A stretch of DNA of 64,000 nt from Octopus vulgaris (taxonomy: Eukaryota), in the NCBI GenBank assembly GCA_951406725.2, contig OX597826.1, positions 52,204,001 to 52,268,000 of the forward strand, given 5' to 3'. Below the pieces are notes generated by a model. It was not told where the DNA came from. It did no database searches and worked only from the letters and a program-made list of their open reading frames with translations. This document shows, in pieces, positions 26,798 to 60,066 of the stretch. Position 1 is the stretch's first letter; the number at the start of each line of letters is the position of its first letter. The position numbers and the translations under genes were made by a program.

Positions 26798-27212
26798 TCT
26801 TATTCCTTTATTGTCCACAAGGGGCTAAACATAGAGGGAACAAACAAGGACAAAGGAATTAAGTCGATTACATCGACCCCAGTGCGTAATTGGTATTTAT
26901 TTAATCGACCCCGAAAGGATGAAAGGCAAAGTCGACCTCGGTGCAATTTGAACTCAGAACGTAGCGGCAGACGAAATACCTATTTCTTTACTACCCACAA
27001 GGGACTAAACACAGAGAAGACAAACAAGGACAGACAAACGGATTAAGTCGATTACATCGACCCCAGTGCGTAACTGGTACTTAATTTATCGACCCCGAAA
27101 GGATGAAAGGCAAAGTCGACCTCGGCGGAATTTGAACTGAGATCGTAACGGCAGACGAAATACCGCTAAGCATTTCGCCCGGCATACTAACGATTCTGCC
27201 TGCTCGCCGTCT
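26110..27212 (-). mobile_element. Cluster of co-oriented family A-related SINEs, ending in a tandem dimer (26800-27212)
   Basis: Core ctggtacttaatttatcgaccccgaaaggatgaaaggcaaagtcgacctcggcggaatttgaactc repeated five times. Several copies separated by (AAT)n. Confidence 0.85.
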
Positions 27213-28859
27213 TACAATGACAATAATAATAACAATAGTAGTTTCTGATTTGCACAGAAGTCAAACAATTTTGAGGAAAAAGGATTCAATCGGTATCATT
27301 GACTCTAGTACATAACCAAATCTCACATCGGTAGGAATTGTATTCTGAAGTGCATTTTGCTTGACTTTTTAACGATTTTGCGAGTCAAAGTCCCCTTATA
27401 AATCTTTATATGAAGGTCACAATGCCAGGAAGTTTAACAGGAGAGAGTCAGCCGATTATATCAGCTTCGGTACTGAACTTGTATATTATATTATCAACCA
27501 CGGAATGTTGAAAAGTAAAATCGACCTTGGCGAATTTTGAATTCAGTTCGTAAAGAGGAGTAACTAAATATTGTAAGATACTTTGTCCGACTCTTGATCG
27601 ATTCCAAGTCTTAAATTTGGGTTGAGTGAGTAATCAATTAAATCTACACAAGTGTGTGATTGGTACTTTACTTATAGAACCCAGAAGAATGAAAGGTAAA
27701 GTCAAACTTGACAGAATTTGAACATTAAATAGAAGAATCTCTAACAAATTCCATAAACTACTTGTCCGACTCTCAAATTATTCCGAAAAAAAAAAAACAA
27801 AGCACAAAAAAACATAAGACTTTGGGAAAGAACTTCAAAGATAAAATGTATGGGAAAGCAACAAATCAGAAATAGTATTCGTATTATATTTAATTGATAA
27901 CATTGGCATACTGCATACATTAGATGACACCAGCATTACTACACTATGTAGAATTCTGCAAAGGAATACTGAATGGTGCTTTAAGGGATGACTTGTGAAT
28001 TTTTTTCTTCCTCATATGTTTCATCAAACTGTCTTATGTATATAAATAATACTGAAACGGAAAATTACGAATCAAGAATTCAGTCATGATGTAGACGAAT
28101 ACCGGGAAGAATTATATTATTATACCCCAACCGTCTGGAAATAGTTTAAAGATAAACGCTTGTGACCTCATCTAAATACTGTATGTCTTCTACAAATATC
28201 TTCGAATACTAGTCTTTGTATTTTTCTTTTTTCTTTTTTTCAAAGTCCTGAAGACATTGTAGAGCAAAAAAAAAAAATGAGTTTCAAACGAGCAAGCTTC
28301 GATCTCTAGTTGAAACTAATTTACTTGAATGTAATCGCACTATAGTCACCGAAAACACTCACGCATACACCACCACCACCACCACCACCGCCACTACTAC
28401 CATCATCATCATCAGCATTATCATCATCATCATTCCCTTCCACACATTCCAGTTTTATGTTTTTCTTCTTAACCGAAAATAAAGCAATGATTTTTTCTTT
28501 TTATTTGTTTTTCTACTGTTTCTCTTAGTGCTGAGCACTCTTATGCATAGAAGTCTATAGACATAAAGTTTTCTTCGTTTCAATCAATTGGTGAAGTTTG
28601 ATAAATCTTTCTTTGATGACCCAAGGGACTGCAGCCGTTCACGAAATGATTTCCAATCGTCAGTCATCTTTTAGAAATTCTATTGATGTATTTGAATTGT
28701 ACAACTTAAACAAGCAAAATTCTGCAGCAACTTTCATTGAATGTATGAGACATGTTTAGATAAATCGCCATTTGATAGTTATCATATGTAAAAAAAAAAA
28801 GAACAAAAAAAAACTTTTGAAAAGTTATTATTTTCACTATTTTTAATGAAATAGAATTA

Positions 28860-34749: not shown

Positions 34750-34977
34750 TGGTAAAAACTGTAAGACAACAAAAGAAAGAAAGAGACCTCAATATTATGT
34801 AAATAGAAGAAATTTATCGGTAAAATAATATGTCACAATTATTCAATAGCCATGCAAAGGTGGAAATCCACAACACCATCTCTTTGGTTATCTGGCCATA
34901 TGACCGAAGAGATGGTGTTGTGGATTTCCACCTCTGCATCCGAAACTCAGAGTTTTATCTTGGCTATTCAATAATTG

Positions 34978-34981
<4 letters not shown>
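34749..34981. mobile_element. Small head-to-head insertion of HHR-like (Penelope-type terminal) fragments in (TA)n
   Basis: ~40-bp near-perfect arms around tggcca (34893-34898). Right arm reads CCGAAGA-GATG..CATC-C-GAAA-CTCAGAG-TT-TTATC. (TA)n on both sides. Confidence 0.55.
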
Positions 34982-35064
<83 letters not shown>

Positions 35065-35077
35065 CATGCACACACAA

Positions 35078-35192
<115 letters not shown>

Positions 35193-35212
35193 TGTATGTA
35201 TGTATGTATGTA

Positions 35213-36462
35213 TTGGGTTGCCAAGGAAGTAATTTCGGGTTTTCAGTGTGAAATAAAAATAATTTTTTTTTATACAAAGAATTCTGTTCGATGACCTTTT
35301 GGTATCTTTCTGGCAACTTCCTGATTCGCGTTCATACAGCTTCAGGTCCTTATCAGCTAAAAACTGAAGCAAGTGCGATTTCAGGTCATCATCATTATTG
35401 AAATTTTTACCATTCAAAGAATTTAGCAAACATCCAAACGCATGGTAATCTGATGGTGCAAGGTTAGGACCGTATGGTGGATATGTCATCTCTTCCCAAC
35501 CAAGCTCCAATCATTTTTTATGAGTTAGCTAATGCGTGTGTGGTCCTGCGTTGTCATTGTGGAACACGATTCCTTTACGATTTACCAATTCTGGCCGTTT
35601 TTCTTTGAAGTCTTCCTCTAGTTTCATTAGTTGTTGGCAGTAAACATCTTAATTGATTGTTTGGTTCCTTGGAAGCAGCTCAAATTACACAGCATTTTTG
35701 TAATCCCACCAATTTGACAGCATGACCTGTTTTTGATGCAGTTCAGTTCTCGATGTGGTTTGTTCTGGTTCATTACACATGGACTATGATCGTTCTCGAC
35801 AGATGTTATTGAATAAACAATCCATTTTTCATCAGTAGTGATGATTCGTTTCAGAAAAGGTCGATTTCATTGCGTTTCAAATGCATATCGCAAATATTGA
35901 TTCGTTGTGTTAAGTGAATCACTTTCAACTTATGTGGAACCCAAATATTGATCTTCTTAATTAGTCTAAGACATTTTAAGTGATTTTCAATTGTTGTGTG
36001 TGAGACATTTAACCTCCCTTCAATCTCTCGCACAGTTATATGACAATGAGATTTAATATGGCTTTGATTCGTCCATCAACTTCAGTAGGTCGACCAGAAC
36101 GTTGGTCATCTTTGAGTGAAAAATCTTCAGAACGGAATTTTTAAAAACATTTCTGACATGTGCGTTCTGTTAAGCAATCAATACCATAAACTTCACACAC
36201 TTCTTTGTGAGCCTCAGCAGTTTTCTTGCCTTTACGGAAATCGAAAAGCAAAATATGGCGAAAATGTTCGTTTTTTTTTTCATTCCATGTTAAAATTGAC
36301 ACTGAACTAACACTTGTAAACAAAATTACGCGCAATTTGCTTCTAAAAGTAACGGCTATCAAATGTCAAAAGGAAAAAAATCATAACGTTGACAAACATC
36401 ATTCACACAAATTGTAACGCTATCTATTTGTAAAAGACGAAATTACTTTCTTGCCAACCCAA
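35213..36462 (-). mobile_element. Full-length (1.25 kb) mariner with disrupted transposase
   Basis: TIRs ttgggttgccaaggaagtaatttcg / cgaaattactttcttgccaacccaa with TA TSD. Motifs EHFRHILLF, WVPHKL and [12 protein letters not shown] in broken frames. Confidence 0.95.
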
Positions 36463-36695
36463 TATATATATATATATATATATAATCAATATAGGGTGGC
36501 AAAAAAATTTTTGTAGAATTCTTTTGCCACCAGCGGCCTAGTAGGAAAAAATTAAATAGTCATAAACCATTTTTACGTTCAACATCACAATCAGTGAACG
36601 GCCATAATAGGCCATTCACTAATACTAGAAATAATTAACCGCAAAATAACATTAATACCGTAAACTGGAGAAAATTGAAAAACTTTTACCCTGTA

Positions 36696-36801
36696 ATTTT
36701 TAGACGATGCACCGTTTCATCTACCGTTTAATGGTAAACTAACCTGATTAAATTAAATCAAGTTAATCCACCATAGGCCCTTAGACTCATCAGTAAGAAA
36801 T
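36696..36801 (-). ncRNA. Type I hammerhead ribozyme, minus-arm copy with 1-nt deletion in stem I
   Basis: tcatcag at 36787-36793 and gacgatgcaccgtttc at 36703-36718 are the reverse complement of an intact core. Confidence 0.75.
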
Positions 36802-37257
36802 AGCCAAATCGGAACAGATATTTTTCACGAGGCATTCCTCTGCTAATTCGGCAATATCTGACCTAAAATTTTTCAAATGTCGCACTCGCGCCAAATTTAT
36901 GGCAGCAAATAAACCACCGATTTCGTTACGGAATTCAACCAGAAATTCATAATTAATCAATATAGTAGCGGCAAAATTTTTGTAGAATTCTTTGCCACCA
37001 GCGGCCTAGTAGGAAAAAATTAAATAGTCATAAACCATTTTTACGTTCAACATCACAATCAAGGGAACGGCCATTACATAGGCCATTCACCCACTAGAAA
37101 TAACAGCAAAAAAGCTTTAACCGCAAAAATAACATTAATACCGTAAACCAGGAGAAAATTGAAAAACTTTTACCCTGACGATTTGAAAATTTTAGGTCAG
37201 ATATTGCCGAGGTAGCAAGAGGAATGCCTCGTGAAAAATATCTGTTCCGATTTGGCT

Positions 37258-37364
37258 ATTTCTTACTGATGAGTCTAAGGGCCTATGGTGGATTGGCTTG
37301 ATTTAATTTAATCAGGTTAGTTTACCATTAAACGGTAGATGAAACGGTGCATCGTCTAAGAAAT
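37258..37364 (+). ncRNA. Type I hammerhead ribozyme, predicted cleavage after GUC at 37356
   Basis: Stem I ATTTCTTA/TAAGAAAT. Core CTGATGA at 37266-72. Stem II GTCTA/TAGAT with long hairpin insert. GAAA at 37341-44. Stem III ACGG-TGCA-TCGT, then C17. Confidence 0.92.
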
Positions 37365-37742
37365 TACAGGGTAAAAGTTTTTCAATTTTCTCCTGGTTTA
37401 CGGTATTAATGTTATTTTGCGGTTAAAGCTTTTGGCTGTTATTTCTAGTGGGTGAATGGCCTATTATGGCCGTTCCTTGATTGTGATGTTGAACGTAAAA
37501 ATGGTTTATGACTATTTAATTTTTTCCTACTAGGCCGCTGGTGGCAAAAGAATTCTACAAAAATTTTTTTGCCACCCTATATTGATTAATTATGAATTTT
37601 CTGGTTAGTTCCGTAACGGAATCGGTGGTTTATTTGCTGCCGATAAATTTGGCGCGAGTGCGACGATTTGAAAATTTTAGGTCAGATATTGCCGAGGTAG
37701 CAAGAGGAATGCCTCGTGAAAAATATCTGTTCCGATTTGGCT

Positions 37743-37849
37743 ATTTCTTACTGATGAGTCTAAGGGCCTATGGTGGATTGGCTTGATTTAATTTAATCAG
37801 GTTAGTTTACCATTAAACGGTAGATGAAACGGTGCATCGTCTAAGAAAT
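37743..37849 (+). ncRNA. Type I hammerhead ribozyme, predicted cleavage after 37841
   Basis: Same sequence as 37258-37364, 485 bp downstream. Confidence 0.92.
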
Positions 37850-37967
37850 TACAGGGTAAAAGTTTTTCAATTTTCTCCTGGTTTACGGTATTAATGTTAT
37901 TTTGCGGTTAAAGCTTTTGGCTGTTATTTCTAGTGGGTGAATGGCCTATTATGGCCGTTCCTTGATT

Positions 37968-38003
<36 letters not shown>

Positions 38004-38057
38004 CTGAAATGCTCTGCCTTCATCTGTGGAATATACTCAGAAAGCACATAAACACAA

Positions 38058-38083
<26 letters not shown>

Positions 38084-38224: not shown

Positions 38225-38258
<34 letters not shown>

Positions 38259-38333
38259 TTGAGTTGTGGGGTATCGCACGAGTGGGATTATATATGAAAA
38301 AAGGTTTGAAAATGCAATTTAAACGATGTTTAT

Positions 38334-38379
38334 TTACTTAACCGGTTTCACTCTTTGTTAAAAAGATTGTCAAAAGTAA
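38334..38379 (-). ncRNA. Minimal variant hammerhead motif of the PLE pseudo-LTR
   Basis: Same as 49543-49588 on the opposite strand. Partial third copy at 44161-44203. Confidence 0.55.
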
Positions 38380-39144
38380 CATTGAATATTATGGGTTCAA
38401 AAAAAGTTTTTTACATAATTGTCACATTGAATATTATGAATTCAAAAATGTTTTTTTATACATAATTGTCACATTACATGTATAAATATAGTATAAAAAA
38501 GTTCAATAGTGTGATGAGAATATTTGGAAAAATTGGCAGAAAAGAATAAAACAAATATATTATTGGAAATTTGGTTGCGTTAATTATTGGTTGTCGCAAA
38601 TTGTCACATTACATGTATATATATACAGTCTTTGGTAGAAATGACATGTTAAAGACATAAGGAAGTGTAATAGTTTGGTGAGAAAGCTTGTAATATTGAC
38701 AGAGAAAATTAAAATGGATATTTTAGACATCTCAGAATATTTTGAATCGAAGGCGAGAATTTGTTTTTTACTGACCTGTTTGTTTTAGCAGAAAAGTTGA
38801 ATTGAGAGAAAAAAAGATATGTACCCAATTTGGTTTATACTTCCCCTTCAAGCATCAGTGACTTTGGGGTTATTGGGAGGTGAGTATGCGGGTGTGAATA
38901 GATGTGTCCGTGTGCCTGCTGGTCAGACAGCGTCTGTTTGTCACACACATATATAACACACACACACACAACAACAATACACACACACACATAGTATACA
39001 CACACACACCACATACACACAACACACACACACACAGAACACACACACACACAACGCACCCACATATATAATATATACACACAGCACACAAATATAACAT
39101 GTATTTATATATAATATACACACATATATAAAACATACACACAC

Positions 39145-39194
<50 letters not shown>

Positions 39195-40430
39195 TATATA
39201 CATAATATAAATATCACACAAATACACCTAGCATATATATACACATACAATACACATACACAGCATGTATATAATACACATACACAATATATGCATGCAA
39301 TATACATACGCAATACATACATATAATATATATATATATAGAGACAATGCATATACATATATACATATATACATATAAATAGTGTTTACATACACATACA
39401 TAGATATACCACATATACACACAATATACATACATACAATGCATACACATACACGTACGCATACATATAAAATATATAGACACACACACACATAACATAC
39501 ATACACAATGCATACATATATATACACGCAACGTATATACATGTATTCATGTATATATAGCACACTTACAATATACATATATACAATGCACACATACACA
39601 CATATATACACTTAATTGTACACATACATATACAATACACATACATACAATATACATATACACAATGCGCATGCAAATAATGCACATGTTTATACACCCA
39701 TATACATGAAAATATATATACACACACACACATACACACACACATATATATATATACACATATATATATATATATACACATATACATACATACATACATA
39801 CATGCACATACATATATTTTTTCACACACATACACACACATATATATATAAATTCACACACACACCCACACACACAAATACAAACCTATAGTGTACACAC
39901 TCAAATATATCTCTACATACCGCACACACACACAAACAATGTACTCACATATACACACATACCATGCATATACACACACAGCACACACACATATATATAT
40001 ATATATATATAAACAAATACACATGTAAATACATACACTCGTACACAATGCTCACACACACACACATACACACACACACGCACACAGTGCACACACACAC
40101 ACATATATACACACGTGCACACACACACACAACGCGCGCACACACACACACATACACACACGCACACAGTGCACACACACACACACACATAAACACACGC
40201 GCACACACACACACACAACGTGCACACTCACACACACACACACAACACTCACACACATACATAACCTACATATATATAATGCATGCGTGTGCGTGCCACG
40301 TATGTGTGCGGTCAATGCCCGCTAGTGTGTCCTATGCGTGCCGATGCGCGCATGTGCCCACCCGCACGATATGCTGTGAGTGTGTGCGCGCCCCTGTGTG
40401 TCTGCTCTGGATGTGTGCCCAGGGGGTATG

Positions 40431-42707
40431 TTAGAGTATGTTTAGTTGTGGTCTGTATTTTTGAATAAGATTACTTTCCTTATTTATTCGTGTTTGGTCT
40501 GTGGTGTTGTCCGAGCATTGGTATAGTGGGAAGACTAAGAATTTGGGGGACTTATTGTGTGCACAAAGGTCTAAGTGTCCACTTAGTGGTATCTGTCTTG
40601 TGGAGGGGTCCCTCAGTTGTTGTCGGTGAACTGTCATTCTTTCTCTGAGGGTAAGGCTCGTTTGCCCTATGTAGTCTTCGTGGCATCCTTCACACCTTAT
40701 GACGTAGAGTAAATTTTTTGATGCGCACGTGAAATTATTTTTTATGATGAATGTGTGTCCCGAGTGGAACTTGTACGACGATCCCTCAATGAGGTGGATG
40801 CAGGTCTTGCAATTGGGGCGACCACATTTTTTGATGGTGGGCGGTGGGTTTGTGTTGTGTAATTTTGCGTTGGTGAGGAGGTTTTTTAGGGATTTAGGTT
40901 GTCTCTTACTTTTTATTATTTTATGAGCTGCCAGTATTTTTTTCAGGCGTGGGTCTTGATTTAGTTGTGGAATGTTGTTGTATATAATAGTGTAAGCTTC
41001 TGCATTCCTTGGGTTGTGTGTTGAGAGATAGGGGAGGCTATTTACTGAACTGTGGATGTGTTTGGGTTTTCGTAGGTCTTGAATGTTGATTGATTTGGCC
41101 CGTTCTATTCCGTTGTCTACTAGTGATGCCGGGTAATGTCTTTCGAGAAGAATTGCCCTTAGTTCCTGGAGTCTTCTATTTCGTGTTGTGTCATTTGAGA
41201 CAATAGTGCAGATTCTTCTCGCTAGGTTGAAGGGGATATTTGTCTTTGTGTGTTTTGGGTGATTGGAGGTGAATAGAAGGTATTGTTTAGAGTCAGTGGG
41301 TTTGTAATGGATGTCAGTTTCAATGTTGACGCCTTTTTTAATGATTAGGATGTCAAGAAAAGGGAGTTGGTCCTGACTATATTCCATTGTGAATTGAATG
41401 TTGTTATTAACACTGTTGATAAGGTTTTTGAAGTCTTTAAGTTGGTCGAGTGTGTGGGACCATAGGATGAGGCAATCATCTAAGTAGCGTTTCCAGTTCT
41501 CCAACAGGTATTTGTGGAAAGACTGGCCGTACTTATATTTGGATTTTTCATAGATATGTGATTCCAGGTAGGCCATCACCAGGTTTGCATAGGTAGGTGC
41601 AACTTTCGTACCCATTGCAGTTCCTGAGACCTGTCTGTAAGTGTTGTTGTGGAAATACATGAAGTTGTTTTGCAGAATAAATTTGAGGCCCTCAATTATG
41701 AATTCTTTTTTAATTCTTTCCGGGATCTCATTGGGATATTTATCCAGCCAGAATTTAATGGCTTCCAGTCCATATTCATGTGGGATTGTGGTGTAAAGAT
41801 TAATAACATCAAAAGAAACGATTAAGGTGTCTTTATCGGCATGTTTGGGGAGATGATTTAATAGGTCCAGGTCATCTCTTACAATACTTGGAATGTGTTT
41901 CAGTATTGGCTTTAAGATGATATCTATAAAGTTGCTAAGTCTGTGTGTTTCACAACTTGGGCCTGCCACTATTGGTCTCAGTTTGAGATCAGTGGGATGT
42001 GGTATAGTGATGCAGGTTGAAGTGGACTTTTTGCAAGCTTCTGTGATAATTTGACTCTTGTGTATTTTTGGAAGCCCATAGAGTGTGCTGGTTTTGCAAT
42101 TAGATTTAGTAATGTAGTCGCATTCCTTTGCTGTCAAGTCATTCCGGTGTTGGTAAATGAGTGCCTTCAGTTTGGTCATTGTTTTGGATTGCTGGTAGTC
42201 GACTACTCTCTCATAGTATGTGGTATCCTCTAAAAGGAGAGATACAGAGTTTTTATATTGCTCAGTATTCATAACAACGACCGTACTACCCTTATCAGCT
42301 TCCTTTATTGTGACGTTATGATTGTCTCGTAGCGTATGTATGATTTCCCATTCTCTTTTACTGGTGTTGGGTTTGAGTTTAGGTTGTGGGAGTTCACCAT
42401 AAGGGAAGTTTGAGATGTAATCGCAAAATTTGTCTAAGGTTTTGTTTTTGCCTTTTATGGGATTATAGTTGCTTTTGTTACGGACCATTGATTCGTCGTT
42501 ATTATTAGTTTTCCTGTCAAAGAATTCCTCTGTGAGGCGTAATTTTCTGCAAAAGTGTGAGATGTCATCCTGTATTTCCCTCAGGTTAGGGTATTGCGGA
42601 GTTGGGGTGAATTTTAGTCCTCTTGAAAGGATTTTTATTTGTGGTGTCGACAGGTTTAGGTTAGAGAGATTCACTATTTTTGGTTTTTCGGGGTTGGTAT
42701 CTACCAT
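40431..42707 (-). CDS. Penelope-like reverse transcriptase + GIY-YIG endonuclease (758 aa, intact)
   Basis: PLE N-terminal IVNLS..LS......LSRGLKFTPT. RT motifs YGLPKIHK, LRPIV, SFDVINLYTTIP, GTAMGTKVAPTYANL, RYLDD, FLD. Cys motif CGRPNCKTC. Endonuclease LLYVIRCEGCHEDYIGQT...RERM..HR. Confidence 0.97.
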   Translation of the reverse strand: MVDTNPEKPKIVNLSNLNLSTPQIKILSRGLKFTPTPQYPNLREIQDDISHFCRKLRLTEEFFDRKTNNNDESMVRNKSNYNPIKGKNKTLDKFCDYISNFPYGELPQPKLKPNTSKREWEIIHTLRDNHNVTIKEADKGSTVVVMNTEQYKNSVSLLLEDTTYYERVVDYQQSKTMTKLKALIYQHRNDLTAKECDYITKSNCKTSTLYGLPKIHKSQIITEACKKSTSTCITIPHPTDLKLRPIVAGPSCETHRLSNFIDIILKPILKHIPSIVRDDLDLLNHLPKHADKDTLIVSFDVINLYTTIPHEYGLEAIKFWLDKYPNEIPERIKKEFIIEGLKFILQNNFMYFHNNTYRQVSGTAMGTKVAPTYANLVMAYLESHIYEKSKYKYGQSFHKYLLENWKRYLDDCLILWSHTLDQLKDFKNLINSVNNNIQFTMEYSQDQLPFLDILIIKKGVNIETDIHYKPTDSKQYLLFTSNHPKHTKTNIPFNLARRICTIVSNDTTRNRRLQELRAILLERHYPASLVDNGIERAKSINIQDLRKPKHIHSSVNSLPYLSTHNPRNAEAYTIIYNNIPQLNQDPRLKKILAAHKIIKSKRQPKSLKNLLTNAKLHNTNPPPTIKKCGRPNCKTCIHLIEGSSYKFHSGHTFIIKNNFTCASKNLLYVIRCEGCHEDYIGQTSLTLRERMTVHRQQLRDPSTRQIPLSGHLDLCAHNKSPKFLVFPLYQCSDNTTDQTRINKESNLIQKYRPQLNIL

Positions 42708-42735
42708 CTGGTGTCGTGGAAACTGATGCCCTTGC

Positions 42736-44046
42736 CTAAAAAAGGAATCCTGGGGTTCTTCTATCTGCGGTATTTTGCTGTATGTGATTCTGTCCCCCGT
42801 TGATATGTTGTCTGTTGAAGAGGTTTTGGTTGTTGTGATTCTGTCCCCCGTTGATATGTTGTCTGTTGAAGAGGTTTTGGTTGTTCCAGGGTCTGGGTTG
42901 TTGGTGTGGCCTCCTGGAAGAGTTTTGGTTATTCCAGGGTCTGGGTTGTTTGTCCTGGGTGTAATGTTGGTTCCTTAGAGTGGGTTGGAAATTACATTCA
43001 TGGTTTAGAAGTGAATTCCTATATGTTGGGGGAGAACTCTGAGTTAGGAGCGGTTTGGGTTGGAATCTACAATCATAGTTCAGAGATGGGTTTCTAAGTG
43101 ATGGGTAGGATCTCCGAATCTGGAACGGTTCTTGTGTGGGTTGGGGTCTACGTTGTCTGGTAAAGTTTTGTCTTGTGATGATGGGTGTCTCGGTTCTTTT
43201 GATGGGATTGTAGTGCTGTCTGTAAGTTCTGTTGTTGTTGTTGTCGATGTTAGGGGTGGTGTGTGTTCGGTGTTTTGTGGTTGGTTTTCTTTGTTTTTGG
43301 CGAGGGGTGTGAGTTGAGGTAGATATTTTAAAATATGGGTTGCTTGAAAGGTGTTCCTTTGTGAACTCTGTTTCATAATTGGCGAACCAGCTGTTTTTTT
43401 CCATTCGCTGGAGGGATGTTAGTTCTTCATCCTCGCAGTTTTTTCTCCAGAGTTTGGTGGTTTCATCAAGGAGTGCTCCTTCACAGTGTTTTGAGATTTC
43501 AATCTGCATTTCATTGTCAAGGGTCTTGAATTTTTCTTCACTGGCGTTGGCTCTGAGCCGCAAGAGTTCTACTTCCGTTTTGAATTTTTCAAAAGCTAGT
43601 TTCTCCCTGAGGTTTTTTTGGTTTTCTGGTTCATTTTGGATGGGTTTTATTTGTAGTTTTCTGGGTAGGATGATAGGGGTGGAGTTGAGCCACTTTTCAT
43701 AAATGTCAGCTTTGTTGCTATTTTTTATGAAATTCCAGAAGGCAAACTTACGCGCTTTGAGATTTTTACTCCAGGTGTTGTTAAGAGAGCTTTTAACTGA
43801 GAAGCAGTCTTTAGTTTGCTCCTGCTTTGGGAGCACTGCCGTCTCTATGGATTTCATTAGGTTTTGCAGTGTTGGGATGATGTCAGGGATTTGATTGGTT
43901 GTTTTGGCCTCCATGAGTCCATTTAGGTATAAGTGCGATTGTTCGACTTTGTTTATTATGGTTGAAAGTTTCGAGGAGATTTCTTGTAATTCTTTTAGGA
44001 TATTTTGGTTCATTAAAGATTCTGCTTGTTGTGATTTGGGTGGCAT
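42736..44046 (-). CDS. PLE ORF1 (436 aa from first ATG): helical/coiled-coil N-half, basic and N/Q/R/P-rich disordered C-half
   Basis: Long open frame inside the element unit, same strand and base composition as the RT ORF. ATG at 44046 (MPPKSQ) just after the pseudo-LTR. Confidence 0.82.
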   Translation of the reverse strand: MPPKSQQAESLMNQNILKELQEISSKLSTIINKVEQSHLYLNGLMEAKTTNQIPDIIPTLQNLMKSIETAVLPKQEQTKDCFSVKSSLNNTWSKNLKARKFAFWNFIKNSNKADIYEKWLNSTPIILPRKLQIKPIQNEPENQKNLREKLAFEKFKTEVELLRLRANASEEKFKTLDNEMQIEISKHCEGALLDETTKLWRKNCEDEELTSLQRMEKNSWFANYETEFTKEHLSSNPYFKISTSTHTPRQKQRKPTTKHRTHTTPNIDNNNNRTYRQHYNPIKRTETPIITRQNFTRQRRPQPTQEPFQIRRSYPSLRNPSLNYDCRFQPKPLLTQSSPPTYRNSLLNHECNFQPTLRNQHYTQDKQPRPWNNQNSSRRPHQQPRPWNNQNLFNRQHINGGQNHNNQNLFNRQHINGGQNHIQQNTADRRTPGFLF

Positions 44047-44210
44047 TTTCGGGACTCGTGTGATGTTTATATATATATAAAAAAGTTGAGTTGTGGGGTA
44101 TCGCACGAGTGGGATTATATATGAAAAAAGGTTTGAAAATGCAATTTAAACGATGTTTATTTACTTAACCGGTTTCACTCTTTGTTAAAAAGATTGTCAA
44201 AAGATTGTCA

Positions 44211-45223
44211 AAAGCTGACATTTATGAAAAGTGGCTCAACTCCACCCCTATCATCCTACCCAGAAAACTACAAATAAAACCCATCCAAAATGAACCAGAA
44301 AACCAAAAAAACCTCAGGAGAAACTAGCTTTTGAAAAATTCAAAACGGAAGTAGAACTCTTGCGGCTCAGAGCCAACGCCAGTGAAGAAAAATTCAAGAC
44401 CCTTGACAATGAAATGCAGATTGAAATCTCAAAACACTGTGAAGGAGCACTCCTTGATGAAACCACCAAACTCTGGAGAAAAAACTGCGAGGATGAAGAA
44501 CTAACATCCCTCCAGCGAATGGAAAAAAACAGCTGGTTCGCCAATTATGAAACAGAGTTCACAAAGGAACACCTTTCAAGCAACCCATATTTTAAAATAT
44601 CTACCTCAACTCACACCCCTCGCCAAAAACAAAGAAAACCAACCACAAAACACCGAACACACACCACCCCTAACATCGACAACAACAACAACAGAACTTA
44701 CAGACAGCACTACAATCCCATCAAAAGAACCGAGACACCCATCATCACAAGACAAAACTTTACCAGACAACGTAGACCCCAACCCACACAAGAACCGTTC
44801 CAGATTCGGAGATCCTACCCATCACTTAGAAACCCATCTCTGAACTATGATTGTAGATTCCAACCCAAACCGCTCCTAACTCAGAGTTCTCCCCCAACAT
44901 ATAGGAATTCACTTCTAAACCATGAATGTAATTTCCAACCCACTCTAAGGAACCAACATTACACCCAGGACAAACAACCCAGACCCTGGAATAACCAAAA
45001 CTCTTCCAGGAGGCCACACCAACAACCCAGACCCTGGAACAACCAAAACCTCTTCAACAGACAACATATCAACGGGGGACAGAATCACAACAACCAAAAC
45101 CTCTTCAACAGACAACATATCAACGGGGGACAGAATCACATACAGCAAAATACCGCAGATAGAAGAACCCCCAGGATTCCTTTTTTAGGCAAGGGCATCA
45201 GTTTCCACGACACCAGATGGTAG
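44211..45223 (+). pseudogene. 5'-truncated ORF1 of the inverted copy
   Basis: Peptide identical to ORF1 apart from the last residues. 1-nt deletion near 44317. Stop overlaps the RT ATG (ATGGTAG). Confidence 0.8.
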
Positions 45224-47492
45224 ATACCAACCCCGAAAAACCAAAAATAGTGAATCTCTCTAACCTAAACCTGTCGACACCACAAATAAAAATCCTTTCA
45301 AGAGGACTAAAATTCACCCCAACTCCGCAATACCCTAACCTGAGGGAAATACAGGATGACATCTCACACTTTTGCAGAAAATTACGCCTCACAGAGGAAT
45401 TCTTTGACAGGAAAACTAATAATAACGACGAATCAATGGTCCGTAACAAAAGCAACTATAATCCCATAAAAGGCAAAAACAAAACCTTAGACAAATTTTG
45501 CGATTACATCTCAAACTTCCCTTATGGTGAACTCCCACAACCTAAACTCAAACCCAACACCAGTAAAAGAGAATGGGAAATCATACATACGCTACGAGAC
45601 AATCATAACGTCACAATAAAGGAAGCTGATAAGGGTAGTACGGTCGTTGTTATGAATACTGAGCAATATAAAAACTCTGTATCTCTCCTTTTAGAGGATA
45701 CCACATACTATGAGAGAGTAGTCGACTACCAGCAATCCAAAACAATGACCAAACTGAAGGCACTCATTTACCAACACCGGAATGACTTGACAGCAAAGGA
45801 ATGCGACTACATTACTAAATTTAATTGCAAAACCAGCACACTCTATGGGCTTCCAAAAATACACAAGAGTCAAATTATCACAGAAGCTTGCAAAAAGTCC
45901 ACTTCAACCTGCATCACTATACCACATCCCACTGATCTCAAACTGAGACCAATAGTGGCAGGCCCAAGTTGTGAAACACACAGACTTAGCAACTTTATAG
46001 ATATCATCTTAAAGCCAATACTGAAACACATTCCAAGTATTGTAAGAGATGACCTGGACCTATTAAATCATCTCCCCAAACATGCCGATAAAGACACCTT
46101 AATCGTTTCTTTTGATGTTATTAATCTTTACACCACAATCCCACATGAATATGGACTGGAAGCCATTAAATTCTGGCTGGATAAATATCCCAATGAGATC
46201 CCGGAAAGAATTAAAAAAGAATTCATAATTGAGGGCCTCAAATTTATTCTGCAAAACAACTTCATGTATTTCCACAACAACACTTACAGACAGGTCTCAG
46301 GAACTGCAATGGGTACGAAAGTTGCACCTACCTATGCAAACCTGGTGATGGCCTACCTGGAATCACATATCTATGAAAAATCCAAATATAAGTACGGCCA
46401 GTCTTTCCACAAATACCTGTTGGAGAACTGGAAACGCTACTTAGATGATTGCCTCATCCTATGGTCCCACACACTCGACCAACTTAAAGACTTCAAAAAC
46501 CTTATCAACAGTGTTAATAACAACATTCAATTCACAATGGAATATAGTCAGGACCAACTCCCTTTTCTTGACATCCTAATCATTAAAAAAGGCGTCAACA
46601 TTGAAACTGACATCCATTACAAACCCACTGACTCTAAACAATACCTTCTATTCACCTCCAATCACCCAAAACACACAAAGACAAATATCCCCTTCAACCT
46701 AGCGAGAAGAATCTGCACTATTGTCTCAAATGACACAACACGAAATAGAAGACTCCGGGAACTAAGGGCAATTCTTCTCGAAAGACATTACCCGGCATCA
46801 CTAGTAGACAACGGAATAGAACGGGCCAAATCAATCAACATTCAAGACCTACGAAAACCCAAACACATCCACAGTTCAGTAAATAGCCTCCCCTATCTCT
46901 CAACACACAACCCAAGGAATGCAGAAGCTTACACTATTATATACAACAACATTCCACAACTAAATCAAGACCCACGCCTGAAAAAAATACTGGCAGCTCA
47001 TAAAATAATAAAAAGTAAGAGACAACCTAAATCCCTAAAAACCTCCTCACCAACGCAAAATTACACAACACAAACCCACCGCCCACCATCAAAAAATGTG
47101 GTCGCCCCAATTGCAAGACCTGCATCCACCTCATTGAGGGATCGTCGTACAAGTTCCACTCGGGACACACATTCATCATAAAAAATAATTTCACGTGCGC
47201 ATCAAAAAATTTACTCTACGTCATAAGGTGTGAAGGATGCCACGAAGACTACATAGGGCAAACGAGCCTTACCCTCAGAGAAAGAATGACAGTTCACCGA
47301 CAACAACTGAGGGACCCCTCCACAAGACAGATACCACTAAGTGGACACTTAGACCTTTGTGCACACAATAAGTCCCCCAAATTCTTAGTCTTCCCACTAT
47401 ACCAATGCTCGGACAACACCACAGACCAAACACGAATAAATAAGGAAAGTAATCTTATTCAAAAATACAGACCACAACTAAACATACTCTAA
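45217..47492 (+). pseudogene. RT/GIY-YIG ORF of the inverted copy, with a 1-nt frameshift near 47040
   Basis: A5 vs A6 run relative to the minus copy splits it into 45217-47181 and a downstream frame ending at 47492. Could be a sequencing homopolymer error. Confidence 0.85.
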
Positions 47493-47913
47493 CATACCCC
47501 CTGGGCACACATCCAGAGCAGGCACACAGGGGCACGCGCACACTCACAGCATATCGTGCGGGTGGGCACATGCGCGCATCGGCACGCATAGGACACACTA
47601 GCGGGCATTGACCGCACACATACGTGGCACGCACACGCATGCATTATATATATGTAGGTTATGTATGTGTGTGAGTGTTGTGTGTGTGTGTGTGAGTGTG
47701 CACGTTGTGTGTGTGTGTGTGCGCGTGTGTTTATGTGTGTGTGTGTGTGTGCACTGTGTGCGTGTGTGTATGTGTGTGTGTGTGCGCGCGTTGTGTGTGT
47801 GTGTGTGCACGTGTGTATATATGTGTGTGTGTGTGCACTGTGTGCGTGTGTGTGTGTATGTGTGTGTGTGTGAGCATTGTGTACGAGTGTATGTATTTAC
47901 ATGTGTATTTGTT

Positions 47914-47947
<34 letters not shown>

Positions 47948-48742
47948 CTGTGTGTGTATATGCATGGTATGTGTGTATATGTGAGTACATTGTTTGTGTG
48001 TGTGTGCGGTATGTAGAGATATATTTGAGTGTGTACACTATAGGTTTGTATTTTGTGTGTGTGGGTGTGTGTGTGAATTTTATATATATATGTGTGTGTA
48101 TGTGTGTGAAAAAATATATGTATGTGCATGTATGTATGTATGTATATGTGTATATATATATATATATGTGTATATATATATATGTGTGTGTGTATGTGTG
48201 TGTGTGTATATATATTTTCATGTATATGGGTGTATAAACATGTGCATTATTTGCATGCGCATTGTGTATATGTATATTGTATGTATGTGTATTGTATATG
48301 TATGTGTACAATTAAGTGTATATATGTGTGTATGTGTGCATTGTATATATGTATATTGTAAGTGTGCTATATATACATGAATACATGTATATACGTTGCG
48401 TGTATATATATGTATGCATTGTGTATGTATGTTATGTGTGTGTGTGTCTATATATTTTATATGTATGCGTACGTGTATGTGTATGCATTGTATGTATGTA
48501 TATTGTGTGTATATGTGGTATATCTATGTATGTGTATGTAAACACTATTTATATGTATATATGTATATATGTATATGCATTGTCTATATATATATATATT
48601 ATATGTATGTATTGCGTATGTATATTGCATGCATATATTGTGTATGTGTATTATATACATGCTGTGTATGTGTATTGTATGTGTATATATATGCTAGGTG
48701 TATTTGTGTGATATTTATATTATGTATATATGTGTGCGTGTG

Positions 48743-48790
<48 letters not shown>

Positions 48791-49542
48791 TTTATATATG
48801 TGTGTATATTATATATAAATACATGTTATATTTGTGTGCTGTGTGTATATATTATATATGTGGGTGCGTTGTGTGTGTGTGTGTTCTGTGTGTGTGTGTG
48901 TTGTGTGTATGTGGTGTGTGTGTGTATACTATGTGTGTGTGTGTATTGTTGTTGTGTGTGTGTGTGTATATATGTGTGTGACAAACAGACGCTGTCTGAC
49001 CAGCAGGCACACGGACACATCTATTCACACCCGCATACTCACCTCCCAATAACCCCAAAGTCACTGATGCTTGAAGGGGAAGTATAAACCAAATTGGGTA
49101 CATATCTTTTTTTCTCTCAATTCAACTTTTCTGCTAAAACAAACAGGTCAGTAAAAAACAAATTCTCGCCTTCGATTCAAAATATTCTGAGATGTCTAAA
49201 ATATCCATTTTAATTTTCTCTGTCAATATTACAAGCTTTCTCACCAAACTATTACACTTCCTTATGTCTTTAACATGTCATTTCTACCAAAGACTGTATA
49301 TATATACATGTAATGTGACAATTTGCGACAACCAATAATTAACGCAACCAAATTTCCAATAATATATTTGTTTTATTCTTTTCTGCCAATTTTTCCAAAT
49401 ATTCTCATCACACTATTGAACTTTTTTATACTATATTTATACATGTAATGTGACAATTATGTATAAAAAAACATTTTTGAATTCATAATATTCAATGTGA
49501 CAATTATGTAAAAAACTTTTTTTGAACCCATAATATTCAATG

Positions 49543-49588
49543 TTACTTTTGACAATCTTTTTAACAAAGAGTGAAACCGGTTAAGTAA
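49543..49588 (+). ncRNA. Minimal variant hammerhead motif (PLE 3' end)
   Basis: TTACTT-TTGACAA-TCTTT ttaac AAAGA gt-GAAA-CCGG-TT-AAGTAA. 6-bp stem I, U3/A8 compensatory core, palindromic ACCGGT stem III. Base of stem II irregular. Confidence 0.55.
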
Positions 49589-49667
49589 ATAAACATCGTT
49601 TAAATTGCATTTTCAAACCTTTTTTCATATATATATATATATATATATTTATGTGCTTTCTGAGTAT

Positions 49668-49726
49668 ATTCCACTGATGAAGGCACAGCATTTTCTATGC
49701 AGAGCCAGAAATCGGGGATCTGGAAT
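49668..49726 (+). ncRNA. Type I hammerhead ribozyme of a different, older element
   Basis: ATTCCA-CTGATGA-aGGC..GCAT tttct ATGC..GCCa-GAAA-TC ggg GA-TC-TGGAAT. Predicted cleavage after 49720. Confidence 0.75.
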
Positions 49727-50496
49727 TATCCAGTATTTTTTTTTGCTAGTTTATTTTGTCTTTTTGTCTTCTCTCCTGGTGCTGTATGAATATTTAATGT
49801 GGGTTTAGAGTCAAGTTTTGACTGCTATTTCCAGCGTGGTGGTATCTCTTAGATACCCTAAATTATAATTTTGAATGTATATGTATATATATTTCGTTCC
49901 TCACTATAGCAGCCAATTTTTTGGCCTTCTATGATGTGAGTATGGTTTAAATTGTTATCCGCATTTTAGAGTAAGATAAAATACCCTGATTAAGTGTTGT
50001 TTTGTGTTAAAAATTATATGAACGTCAGAAACCACCCCATCCCGGCTTTTCCATCGCCGTAAAATAAATAATTCTGATCATGCACTAATGGATATCTCAT
50101 GTTATAAAACGGGAAAAATATTGATAAGATTTGCACTTGGGTGACAGTGTCTTTGTGCAAAGCTATTCACGGCTTCATCCAAAGAAAAAATGAGTCATTA
50201 GTAAAAAAAGTCAGGTAAAAATAACAACTTTGAGTACGAATGCAGAAATTTTTGTAGAAAGGAAGTGCTGCTTTTTCTATCAATTGAAGATGAGCAATAT
50301 TTCAGAATACAAACAAACAAAATTCAATCAAAACTAAGCCCAGATAAAAATCAAATAGTATTGTCGGGAAACAGGAAATTACAGAAGCAGACAAAGGAAT
50401 AAACCAGAAAATAACCCGAGCAGTAAAAATAGATGGAATATCGTAAACTTTCTCTCCTTCCCACTTCTCTCATTGTCTGTCTGTCTGTCTCTATCC

Positions 50497-53740: not shown

Positions 53741-54246
53741 AGATAGATTCATCAACAAAACCTTTCACTGATCCACACTAACATCGACACTGACAAAACG
53801 TTTCTTGCTATCCGCTCATTCAATCAGTTTCTAACACCGCCATAAAAAAAAATACGGACAATAAATGAAGTCTCATCATCAAATTATTTAACGTTGGAGG
53901 CCAATTCCAAAGCTTACAGTTTTCTGAATGGAGCGCTACACAGATTTGTTTCCTAAGCTACTCTTTTAAATTTATATCTATACGATCTTCTCGTTCCTGC
54001 ACAAAACAAACCACCACATGCTGTGCTGATGGCATCCTACACATGCCTTATCATTATTTTCAAGAAAATGTTGCACATCCTACTGCAAAGCGTTCATGAG
54101 TCATTTACAAGCCTGTCACTGTAAAAGCAATAACAGACTTAGAGTATTATCAATCAAATCTGCAGTCTCCCTTCTAACCAGCAATACTAGAGAACATGAA
54201 ACACAACACCCATAACAATATAATGCATAACTTAAATAAATATACC

Positions 54247-54476
54247 TATTTCTTTATTACCCACAAGGGGCTAAACACAGAGGGGACAAACAAGGACAGA
54301 CATAGGTATTAAGTCGATTACATCGACCCCAGTGCGTAACTGGTACTTAATTTATCGACCCCGAAAGGATGAAAGGCAAAGTCGACCTCGGCGGAATTTG
54401 AACTCACAACGTAACGCAGACGAAATACCGCTAAGCATTTCGCCCGGCGTGCTAACGTTTCTGCCAGCTCGCCGCC
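54247..54476 (-). mobile_element. SINE family A, young copy
   Basis: 15-bp TSD ttaaataaatatacc at 54232-54246 and 54477-54491. Almost identical to 13200-13428. Confidence 0.95.
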
Positions 54477-55211
54477 TTAAATAAATATACCACACACACA
54501 CACATGCACTAAGAGAGAGAGAGGGGGGGAAGAAAGTGGGGGACGGAATGGAGACAAAGACACGAACGTCATCAAATGAAGAATAGAACTATATAATCGA
54601 TCTACTCGCTAGAAGTTGCAGTTAAACCTTTCACGACATACATCATAACATTTTAAAATTGCAAACGATACATAATTAAGTTCTAGATATCATTGAAGTG
54701 AAGACACATGGCCTTGTGGTTAGGGTGTTGTGCTTACTATTATAAGGTCGTAAATTCAATCTCTGGTGAGAGCGTCACATTGTCCTTGAACAGAGCATAC
54801 CATTTCACAGTGCTTCAGTCTAAACAGGTGAAAATGAATATCAGCCGATTGCTAGTGCAGACCCTTACTTTCTCTCTAACTGTAATATATTCGATAGGCC
54901 ATGGAGTCATGGGTGGGCTGGCTGGCTTAAAAGGATGCCTATATCAGCTTGCTACTAAAATAATTTGGGAAAAGCATGGCCCAAGCTATCAGGTGCTTTT
55001 TTTTTTCTCTATAGATGTCGTCGAAAAGACAGGTCGATCATATTTGGCAAAGCTGGTGTGATTTGAACTCAGAATAAATTCCACGCGTAATTTTTACCTC
55101 GAAGATCTGACGATTGGGCTAGTACGTCTCTCTATCCCCTAAACTGTAAAGAGTAAATGTTGTAGCGGTCCTTTATTTTCCCAGTTGTGATATCTTGGCT
55201 ATTCCACTATG

Positions 55212-55442
55212 TATTTCTTTACCACCCACAAGGGGCTAAACACAGAGAGGAGAAACACGGACAGACAAACGGATTAAGTCGATTATATCGACCCCAGTGC
55301 GTAACTGGTACTTAATTTATCGACCCCGAAAGGATGAAAGGCAAAGTCGACCTCGGCGGAATTTGAACTCAGAACGTAACGGCAGACGAAATACTGCTAC
55401 GCATTTCGCCCGGCGTGCTAACGGTTCTGCCAGCTCGCCGCC
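55212..55442 (-). mobile_element. SINE family A
   Basis: TSD cttggcta(t/c)tccactatg at 55194-55211 and 55442-55459. Confidence 0.93.
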
Positions 55443-56104
55443 TTGGCTACTCCACTATGGTCATGAATGAGGGGTTAGCGTAAACAGTGTCTAAGTCTCT
55501 TGGTGATTATATAGGCACCTAAAATAATTGACGAAAGCATGGTACTTGTTACCAAGCCATACTTGCTCGTGAGTGACGTCTAGCTTTTCTGTACTGCACC
55601 GATGATATTAGCATCACTGAGGTCAAATTAATTTCCAATCTTTCAGTAATTAGCTAACACAAACGTCTTATATCTAATTATGTGAATCCGTAAACTGTAA
55701 ACGGAATAAAATAACAGGAAAGCGTGAAATAGAATAAAATGAAACGAAGTGAGGGATGAGGGAATAAAAATATAATTAGATATTCAGTATAACACATCCA
55801 ATATTTCAATTCGGTGAAGACAAATATGTGCGTGTGCATATGTGGTGGTGGTGTACGTCCGTGTATGTATTTGTGTATGTGTGTGCATGTGTGCGTAAAA
55901 TGATTTATTATATGTATGTAAATTAATTTTTTTTAATGTATATACAAAGATGTATGCTTATAATTATAATTAAAAATTAACTGAGTTAGTACATTATGTA
56001 AACATGCATGGATTTAGATATGCATGTATGTACCTAAGTATATAAGTATATTTAAGATTATAACTATATATATATATATATATATGTATGTATATATACT
56101 ATAT

Positions 56105-58303: not shown

Positions 58304-58716
58304 GGCGGCGAGCTGGCAGAAACGTTAGCACGCCGGGTAGAATGCCTAGCGGTATTTCGTCTCTCGTTACATTGAGTTCAAACTCCGCTGAGGTCGACTT
58401 TGCCTTTTATCCTTTCGGGGTCGATTAAATAAGTACCAGTTGCTCACTGGGGTCGATATAATCGACTTAATCCGTTTGTCTGTCCTTGTTTGTTCTCTCT
58501 GTGTTTAGCCCCTTGTGGGTAGTAAAGAAATAGGTATTTCGTCTGCCGCTACGTTCTGAGTTCAAATTCCGCCGAGGTCGACTTTGCCTCTCATCCTTTC
58601 AGTGTCGATAAATTAAGTACCAGTTACGCACTGGGGTCGATGTAATCGACTTAATCCCTTTGTCTGTCCTTGTTTGTCCACTCTATGTTTAGCCCCTTGT
58701 GGGCAAGAATGAAATA
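58304..58716 (+). mobile_element. SINE family A dimer (full unit plus 5'-shortened unit)
   Basis: Second unit starts at ggtatttcgtctgcc (~58533). caaaacggcg repeated at both ends. Confidence 0.9.
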
Positions 58717-60066
58717 GCAAAACGGCGTAACTTAATTCTAACTTTTAGTCAGGGATTGAAGGGTAATGTTCATGACTATGTATTTTCTCAGGGCCTCCAA
58801 ACGTGGCGAAAAAAATGAAGGAAGTTAGTCGCAAACGGGATATTTTGGTTTGGCTGTTCGTAACAGAGTAAACTCCGCTAAAGTCACCTAATGGTCAAGT
58901 GGTGATGTTAAACCGGTTGATAGATGAGCTATACGAATTAAAATCTCAGAATGAAAAGAGCCGAGCAAATAAAATTCCATCCTTGACATCACTAAACTCC
59001 ACATCTTCTCCTCCAAATCACAATAAGATTTGACCATTGCACTCAAAAACTGCACTGTTCATAAAATTAACACAAAAATTCCATATCGTAAAAAAGAAAG
59101 GAAAATACACGTGTCTTTCTAACCATCATTGACACTCGTGATTCTTTCAGCTCAACCTTTCGCTATTCCACCCATACAAATAGACTCAATACCACTTTAA
59201 AAAACGATTCAAAACACCAGCTACCCGTTAGTCTATTTCCTTACCTGTAATTTATCCCTTTATGGTATCACACTCTGCAGATACTTCTGCAAAACTATTC
59301 TCTCATCCAGAAACTGTACCCAGGTAACATCATAAGATGCAGATAATATGATAATGTTCACATTCCCCATCTTACTGCAGACAATTTTGCGAAACTACTC
59401 TTAAATCACATAAGAATTTGACTCTACAAGAACTGGCTAACCCCAATCCTATCGAATCAACCGTCTCCATTTTTTCCAGTAAAGTCTGAGAACCTCAGAT
59501 ACCAACAAAAAATTTTTTAAAGACATTACATTGTAAAGAACAACAAAACTTGCACAAGTAGTAAATAACAATCCAAAGAGTTACAGTTTTTTGCCAAACA
59601 TTCACAACCTACACAGCCAAGAAAATAAAATTATGCACAGGCCGAATTTGACCTCAAAAGAAAGAAACAACTACGATATAGTATAAAGTATCGAAAATCT
59701 AACTTTATAGAGAGAAAGGATAGTCCTTTACATCGTAGCCAGAGCTCAACTGGTACTTACTTCATCTTTCCCGCAAGGGTGGGGAAAAAAGTCAACCTCA
59801 GCAGAATTTCAGCTCAGAACGTACAGACAAACGAAATGCCGCTAAGAATTTTGTCCGGCGTGCTAACGATTCTGCCTGCTCGTCACCTTAATAATAAAAA
59901 TAATGGCATCACATTTTGGCACTAGATCAGCAGTTTCGGGATAGGGGTAAGTCGATTACATCGACTCCAGTGCTCAACTGGAACTTATTTTATCGACCCC
60001 AAAAAGATGAAAGGCAAAATCGACCTTGGCGGAATTTGAACTTACAATATACATATATATATACAT

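Follow-up and report, generated by a model that had tools for sequence, protein, structure and literature searches.

A locus in Octopus vulgaris raises the question of whether the mechanics by which a retrozyme is inserted can be read from its inserted copies. Animal retrozymes are assumed to be moved by Penelope-type elements (PLEs) through circular RNA, and the support for PLE-driven retrozymes in the published material available to us comprises co-occurrence, similarity of terminal repeats and RNA circles, not the mechanics of insertion. The locus lies in a stretch of 64,000 nucleotides (GenBank assembly GCA_951406725.2, contig OX597826.1, positions 52,204,001 to 52,268,000), here called the window, to which all coordinates without a locus name refer. 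Positions 36483-37972 hold two head-to-head arms of one 485-nt repeat, bounded by (TA)n runs, and the region is laid out as follows.

36463..36484, unstranded: left run of (TA)n target sequence, into which the 3' end of the minus arm merges
36483..37177, minus: inverted arm, 1.4 units, from unit position 11 to site B (~232)
36695..36801, minus: third hammerhead, with its core at 36793-36787 and cleavage predicted between 36703 and 36702
37177..37972, plus: direct arm, 1.64 units, from unit position 306 to site A (131)
37258..37364, plus: type I hammerhead 1, core 37266-37272, stem II 37273-37340, predicted cut after 37356
37357..37841, plus: unit of 485 nt from cut to cut, the predicted monomer or circle; GC 37%, plus strand structured
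37454..37475, plus: hairpin immediately upstream of site A, retained in the sister family
37488..37593, plus: "tail" of ~105 nt from site A (~37487) to site B (~37588-37593)
37540..37576, plus: long hairpin immediately upstream of site B, retained in the sister family
37743..37849, plus: second type I hammerhead, the same in sequence as hammerhead 1, with cleavage predicted after 37841
37971..37999, unstranded: right run of (TA)n target sequence
38241..49633: neighbouring two-armed PLE, a separate element, with minus arm 38241-44203 and plus arm 44211-49633

The earlier note on this DNA had taken all of 36483-37972 for a tandem array. This holds for the plus arm (37177-37972), whereas 36483-37177 proved to be an inverted arm with a third hammerhead that had been missed. 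The arms overlap by 1 nt at 37177. The two plus-strand passes are 100% identical over the 311 nt in which they overlap, and the minus arm is ~93% identical to the plus unit, with private differences that are rich in indels. Since 248 of the 264 novel 15-mers of the minus arm occur in none of 93 other loci checked, these differences may be assembly errors; as they stand, the two arms of the window differ in haplotype, contrary to a clean one-circle model. Tandem Repeats Finder did not report the 485-nt unit, present in the window in fewer than two copies, and the joints listed included no empty-site joint spanning the element. Directly to its left, 34968-36460 is decayed sequence whose translated motifs resemble a mariner transposase, a presumptive label. 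Elsewhere in the window an abundant interspersed repeat of ~184-230 bp, probably a SINE, occurs at 6495-6739, 13196-13432, 26801-27215, 54240-54482, 55212-55444 and 58304-58717, sometimes in tandem.

The hammerhead motifs at 37266-37356 and 37751-37841 are identical and spaced 485 bp apart, with the two predicted cuts that the earlier note had given them. Each has a CTGATGA / GAAA / GTC core, with 8 bp in stem I and 4 bp in stem III, whose loop is the TGCA noted there, and the third copy (36793-36703, minus) carries a single mismatch in stem I. A strict hammerhead descriptor gave 0 matches in 100 block-shuffled windows, as did the hammerhead pattern in 100 dinucleotide shuffles. The motifs had also been called canonical, and here the description fails: a canonical type I hammerhead has a short stem II (~4 bp) whose loop contacts stem I, and stem II of this unit is 68 nt long, with a 5-bp base, an internal loop and an 18-bp G-U-rich hairpin. 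A stem of this length is unable to make the usual loop 1-loop 2 contact, and cleavage may therefore be slow. The search with hammerhead models that had been proposed as a check returned 0 Rfam matches at gathering thresholds across the whole window, most likely because of the long stem II.

The rest of the unit has the character of a structured non-coding RNA. Its plus-strand monomer has a predicted fold of -146.3 kcal/mol (z -5.5 against shuffles) and its minus strand one of -86.5 kcal/mol (z -2.0), a modelled strand bias that is as expected for a G-U-rich RNA. The G-U-containing hairpins named previously are present, and G-U pairs make up 31 of the 162 pairs in the predicted circular fold; in the predicted minimum-energy fold of the circle, stem III does not form. 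The longest frame of the unit (GC 37%, below 50%) is 64 aa. We considered this 64-66 aa frame, which starts at site B where an ATG lies, as a possible gene and rejected it, as it shrinks to 26 aa in some subfamilies and to 22 aa in the sister family, and a Pfam search gave no match to it. A frame joining a reverse transcriptase (RT) to a GIY-YIG endonuclease, the mark of an autonomous PLE, is absent from the unit and is continuous with no arm in 80 loci, and no long terminal repeat (LTR)-plus-interior layout was found in these 80 family loci.

A search of the source genome (2.8 Gb) yielded 668 candidate regions, and in the best 40, which were scored, full-length units are 95-100% identical. 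Counted genome-wide, as had been suggested, an exact 24-nt pattern of the ribozyme 3' half occurs in 704 copies, against 0 for its reversed control. Units are arranged head-to-tail with periods of 482-496 bp across the family, subfamilies are present at ~88-95% identity, and a sister family that is ~70% identical gave 2341 candidates. The reading of a young, dispersed, non-coding, retrozyme-type tandem family with (TA)n flanks and more-than-unit copies was thus upheld. The sister family (L066:5342-5991; L071-L081), with the core CCGAUGA, is older and more numerous and has the same two end sites. Core positions N7 and the cleavage base tolerate change in hammerheads; among the subfamilies the core varies at N7, where all four bases occur, and at the cleavage base, giving GTC or GTA, and the sister family has a C at core position 4.

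Covariation was assessed in 13 sequences picked to span the subfamilies and the sister family, in an alignment that misaligns the stem II base of the latter. In this set 94.7% of cells pair, compared with at most 46.6% in slid controls, and changes on both sides are seen in 8 of 33 pairs, 4 of them in stem I, compared with at most 2 pairs in slid controls. The count of covarying pairs failed to beat a shuffle control (62/500), and most double changes trace to one split between the two families. The constrained core together with the compensatory changes suggests that the ribozyme is under selection. Related and unrelated elements were also encountered. A further, more distant sister family is represented by two copies (L141:1290-1690, L142:1369-1700) in which stem II is shortened and which end at site A. 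A two-armed element that resembles a retrozyme but is unrelated (L064:2165-3580; period ~546 nt, stem II of 46 nt) directly adjoins a copy of the 485-nt family within one TA run. Two more hammerhead motifs, belonging to other families, lie at L059:7658 and L059:4167 (both minus), and stem II of one of them is 60 nt long; stems II of such length seem to be common in the Octopus vulgaris genome.

The record of insertion lies in the arm ends, which we mapped in two samples: the 40 best-scoring loci, including the window, with no selection on ends, and 40 loci picked by one exact end (28 by B, 12 by A). Among the 140 arms in these 80 loci, 65 end at unit positions 126-138 (A) and 69 at 230-243 (B), with 6 elsewhere, so that 134 of the 140 arm 3' ends fall at two fixed sites, A at ~131 and B at ~237. 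TA-rich DNA, the flank that had been sought, follows 133 of the 140 arms. The two sites are combined strictly: 52 of 58 divergent pairs are A+B, none is A+A or B+B, and the remaining 6 have one unassignable end, attributable to an assembly gap, a contig end or very short or cut arms. In the sample not selected on ends, 24 of 24 assignable pairs are A+B. One apparent exception, an 8-kb pair of B ends on C1, was rejected as a single insertion when it resolved into two separate A+B insertions (L143). Arms are on average 1.6 units long, the longest 7.2 units, and overlaps at the junction between arms are mostly 0-4 nt. The earlier claim of arbitrary start points is therefore correct for the 5' starts, which vary, and wrong for the 3' ends. 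Genome-wide counts on the forward strand were 269 for A and 669 for B, which are not mutually comparable because the patterns differ in stringency; those on the reverse strand are inflated because matches overlap.

The insertions thus combine an inverted 5'-truncated copy, a "tail" (37488..37593 in the window) found at only one end of any insertion and a (TA)n target, as Penelope-type insertions do, and the A+B pattern reads as the Penelope "tail" signature. From this two-armed, two-start-site footprint it follows that the element was likely copied by a Penelope-type enzyme.

We then looked for traces of the template in variants that occur in the arms of 24 two-armed loci (the window, homopolymer edges and arm ends being excluded). 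When testable in both arms, recurrent substitutions are common to both in 39 of 40 cases, and rare substitutions, present in at most 2 loci, in 15 of 16, which indicates that both arms were copied from one template source. Variants private to a locus (the comparison covered 40 of the several hundred loci) are repeated in every pass of an array or in almost every one (for example, G147A in 8 of 8 passes in L067), and such repetition points to a monomer bottleneck. Of the 221 unit-unit junctions, 216 match the unit exactly and 5 depart from it by substitutions only; no added bases were found at any of them in a search that required an intact 5' side. The arrays also contain exceptions to a clean one-circle model: in L034 and L045 one unit carries a 6-nt insertion, and in L036 and L053 two unit variants alternate. 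These mixed arrays are not explained by one monomer circle, and may reflect either template switching between RNAs or assembly polishing.

The 5' ends of the arms bear on the cut itself. They fall at positions 1-13 in 10 of 97 cut-crossing arms, against 2.6 expected (p 3e-4), and in L060 the 5' ends of both arms coincide with the predicted cut, one after 1.3 units and the other after 3.5. As indirect genomic evidence, this piling suggests that the hammerhead cuts where predicted. Family pieces are present in assembled contigs from four distinct runs that we guessed to be RNA, as are pieces of other repeats, and several unique bins are empty in those contigs. Relative to two large runs, the unit had a smaller summed depth, a measure unsuited to ranking, than either the PLE frame or the short interspersed repeats.

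The element in the window lies close to a PLE that had been put forward as its specific helper. This neighbour has a frame with RT plus GIY-YIG at 40431-42974 (minus), and we label it Neptune type because of its cysteine linker and (TA)n target (PMC8557442, in the portion available). It is young, with 1269 candidates, many of them 100% identical, and has an extra upstream frame and a 2.1-kb microsatellite-rich 3' region; its arms end ~50 nt and ~90 nt past the predicted cut. Both arms end inside the fetched stretch in 30 of 38 loci of its family, and, counted by eye, the long end used for selection is joined by the short end in each of the 30, the same insertion geometry as in the 485-nt family. 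A hammerhead-like motif lies just to the right of this PLE (49662-49735, plus) and an inverted partial copy just to the left (38007-38073, minus), perhaps an older two-armed element that was split by the PLE insertion. The role of specific helper is not borne out. The PLE carries its own, unrelated minimal hammerhead with a U3-A8 core, a covariation described in the accessible part of PMC3088659, and shares no DNA similarity with the 485-nt unit, the best matches being 8-18 nt at E 0.18 or worse. We likewise rejected the unit as a pseudo-LTR of this PLE, with whose terminal repeat it has no identity. As the two share no sequence, their adjacency reflects a common (TA)n target.

A wider search was made for a coding relative. 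In a GIY-YIG survey, 150 of 6136 candidates were scored, giving 148 matches, from which 20 loci were examined; the unit served as a terminal repeat in 0 of 20. The earlier note would have given up its reading if the unit had proved to be a coding PLE's pseudo-LTR, which was the case neither in these 20 loci nor in the 80 family loci, and no parent or helper PLE was found among either set. PLE fragments near the 80 family loci are separate insertions, and a 53-nt A-ended unit fragment beside a PLE end in L129 is read in the same way. A search for the same hammerhead with a stem II of 12-40 nt gave 4 matches, 2 in deleted copies of the further sister family and 2 unrelated, with no PLE frame within 1.5 kb of any of the 4. 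The 40 end-selected loci that lack a nearby exact ribozyme contain nothing but short copies or members of subfamilies. Loci L119-L123 represent a PLE family that is very young and high in copy number; it has a 781-aa RT-endonuclease frame that is 56% identical to that of the neighbouring PLE and repeated TGATGACGTC motifs in its 3' region; by age it is a helper candidate, with no sequence link to the unit.

Taken together, we consider it probable that the element is a non-LTR retrozyme, with an RNA predicted to self-cleave and circularise, that is copied in trans by a PLE RT-endonuclease. The element would be transcribed and its hammerheads would cleave after GUC to release a 485-nt monomer, a cleavage predicted from the intact cores, the covariation and the 5' ends piling at the cut. 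By analogy with published retrozymes, and in keeping with the array structure, the monomer would be ligated into a circle. A PLE protein would presumably cleave a (TA)n run on both strands, and the DNA ends so made would prime reverse transcription ~105 nt apart, one at A and the other at B; the resulting A/B pattern of ends is directly observed. Copying may then circle the template as many as 7 times, or run off the 5' end of a cleaved RNA, and the two cDNA ends would join head to head through the overlaps of a few bases seen at the junctions. It is tempting to speculate further, as a possibility that we hold only tentatively, that every insertion documents one event, in which one PLE dimer holds one small RNA circle and primes the two ends of a staggered (TA)n break at two different fixed sites of that circle, and that two copies chase one another around the circle until the hammerhead re-opens it. 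The hammerhead would then set array length, the hairpins before A and B could be a recognition signal by which an RNA that encodes no protein hijacks PLEs, and the 68-nt stem II might represent an unrecognised hammerhead architecture with a tertiary contact in its internal loop.

Two-site priming by a PLE does not by itself demand a covalent circle, as uncleaved multimers, or end-to-end template jumps between linear cleaved monomers, could supply the same arrays. Uncleaved RNA is the dominant PLE substrate in vitro (PMC11167929, as far as that source was available), mixed arrays occur, and the many short arms that stop near the cut imply that linear templates occur. In a multimer, however, a mutation would be expected in one unit, yet rare variants span passes and both arms; the lack of added bases at the 221 junctions (given the intact 5' side that the search required) speaks against template jumps, and both arms of L060 stop at the cut despite having made unequal numbers of turns. 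On balance we regard a mechanism that dispenses with the circle as unlikely. Rather less credit is due to the idea that the unit is a pseudo-LTR, or an internally deleted form, of an unsampled coding PLE, of which the insertions would be stumps. The insertions do carry the footprint of a PLE, site B has an ATG at the place where frames of PLEs start, the survey covered 20 of 6136 GIY-YIG candidates, and retrozymes of Xenopus are related to PLE pseudo-LTRs according to the available part of a preprint (bioRxiv 10.64898/2026.07.22.740005). On the other hand, 0 arms run into a PLE frame in the 80 loci, the 20 GIY-YIG loci include none with the unit as terminal repeat, the small frame is shortened in subfamilies and the sister family with no Pfam match, and pure arrays reach 7 units, all of which makes this origin improbable.

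The inverted arm might instead have arisen by fold-back (self-priming) on the first cDNA, or from an antisense template, and not by a second target priming, as proposed for head-to-head PLE repeats in the accessible part of PMC3846280. Fold-back would account for the variants common to both arms, one arm could fit inside the other in 43 of the 52 pairs, and in some short pairs the two arms have almost coincident starts. Nevertheless, neither arm fits inside the other in 9 of the 52 pairs, including that of the window, and no single direction of fold-back works when A fits in B in 29 pairs and solely B in A in 14; fold-back also leaves unexplained that the second arm invariably ends at whichever fixed site the first did not use, and we judge it very improbable. 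Least credible of all is that this is a plain satellite or DNA-level repeat whose hammerhead is fortuitous or dead, a reading compatible with the absence of an Rfam match and with a cleavage activity that is so far a prediction. Dispersed short arrays, fixed 3' ends with variable 5' ends and (TA)n targets argue against it, as do the strand-specific G-U structure, the constrained core and the compensatory changes.

The copying of a retrozyme circle in trans by a PLE, which we prefer, gains from this family predictions at the level of single bases: the cut site, priming sites at ~131 and ~237, one of each per insertion, and multi-turn copying. The arm ends make the PLE-circle model testable with an existing in vitro PLE assay, and a hammerhead with a long stem II is of the kind that standard models miss. 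The retrozyme class, the tail and the two start sites were already known; what this family adds is an unusual stem II and a mechanistic insertion footprint. A literature search of limited coverage, which took in no supplements or repeat databases, returned nothing on this family, and within the same limits on coverage and supplements nothing on fixed two-site ends in retrozymes; the word "ribozyme" is absent from the accessible part of the octopus repeat annotation (PMC13282606).

Metazoan non-LTR retrozymes, in the available portions of two descriptions (PMC7229834; bioRxiv 10.64898/2026.07.22.740005), are like this unit non-coding tandems with one type I hammerhead each, a GC content below 50%, a highly paired monomer and co-existing PLEs, and their mobilisation by PLEs via a circle is the model proposed there. 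By these features of its sequence, the element would be classed among them. Its 485 nt compare with published sizes of 150-450 bp (PMC7229834) and 51-972 bp (bioRxiv 10.64898/2026.07.22.740005). It differs in its 68-nt stem II and in that its RNA and cleavage are predictions here, and dispersed two-armed insertions with two fixed 3' ends, as seen here, are absent from those portions of the two descriptions. According to accessible text, non-LTR retrozyme repeats carry no motif that points to a helper (PMC7761336), and 1 of 9 predicted retrozyme dimers cleaved (bioRxiv 10.64898/2026.07.22.740005).

With endonuclease-positive Neptune-type PLEs, as far as the sections available describe them (PMC8557442, PMC3846280, PMC4209133), the element shares (TA)n targets, 5' truncation, partial tandems, an inverted 5' copy, a tail at one end and a hammerhead upstream of the 3' ends; one-sided tails with inverted 5' copies are described for PLEs in PMC8557442. 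Unlike them, it has no RT or GIY-YIG frame, and it has a full stem III in place of a minimal hammerhead; its tail is ~105 nt, compared with 30-40 nt. Its arms reach 7 units, whereas those of the neighbouring PLE family rarely exceed 1. The element thus lacks what an autonomous PLE encodes, yet appears to insert like one. The closest experimental parallel is Anolis Poseidon, for which the available part of PMC11167929 reports that in vitro the PLE protein cuts AT-rich DNA on both strands, extends each of them and starts at two internal sites bounding the tail, as the arm ends of the unit would imply for its own copying, and that the hammerhead is dispensable, with uncleaved RNA as the main substrate. 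No difference in start site between strands was seen for Poseidon (PMC11167929), whereas insertions of the unit pair A with B strictly and include arms with ends at the cut site.
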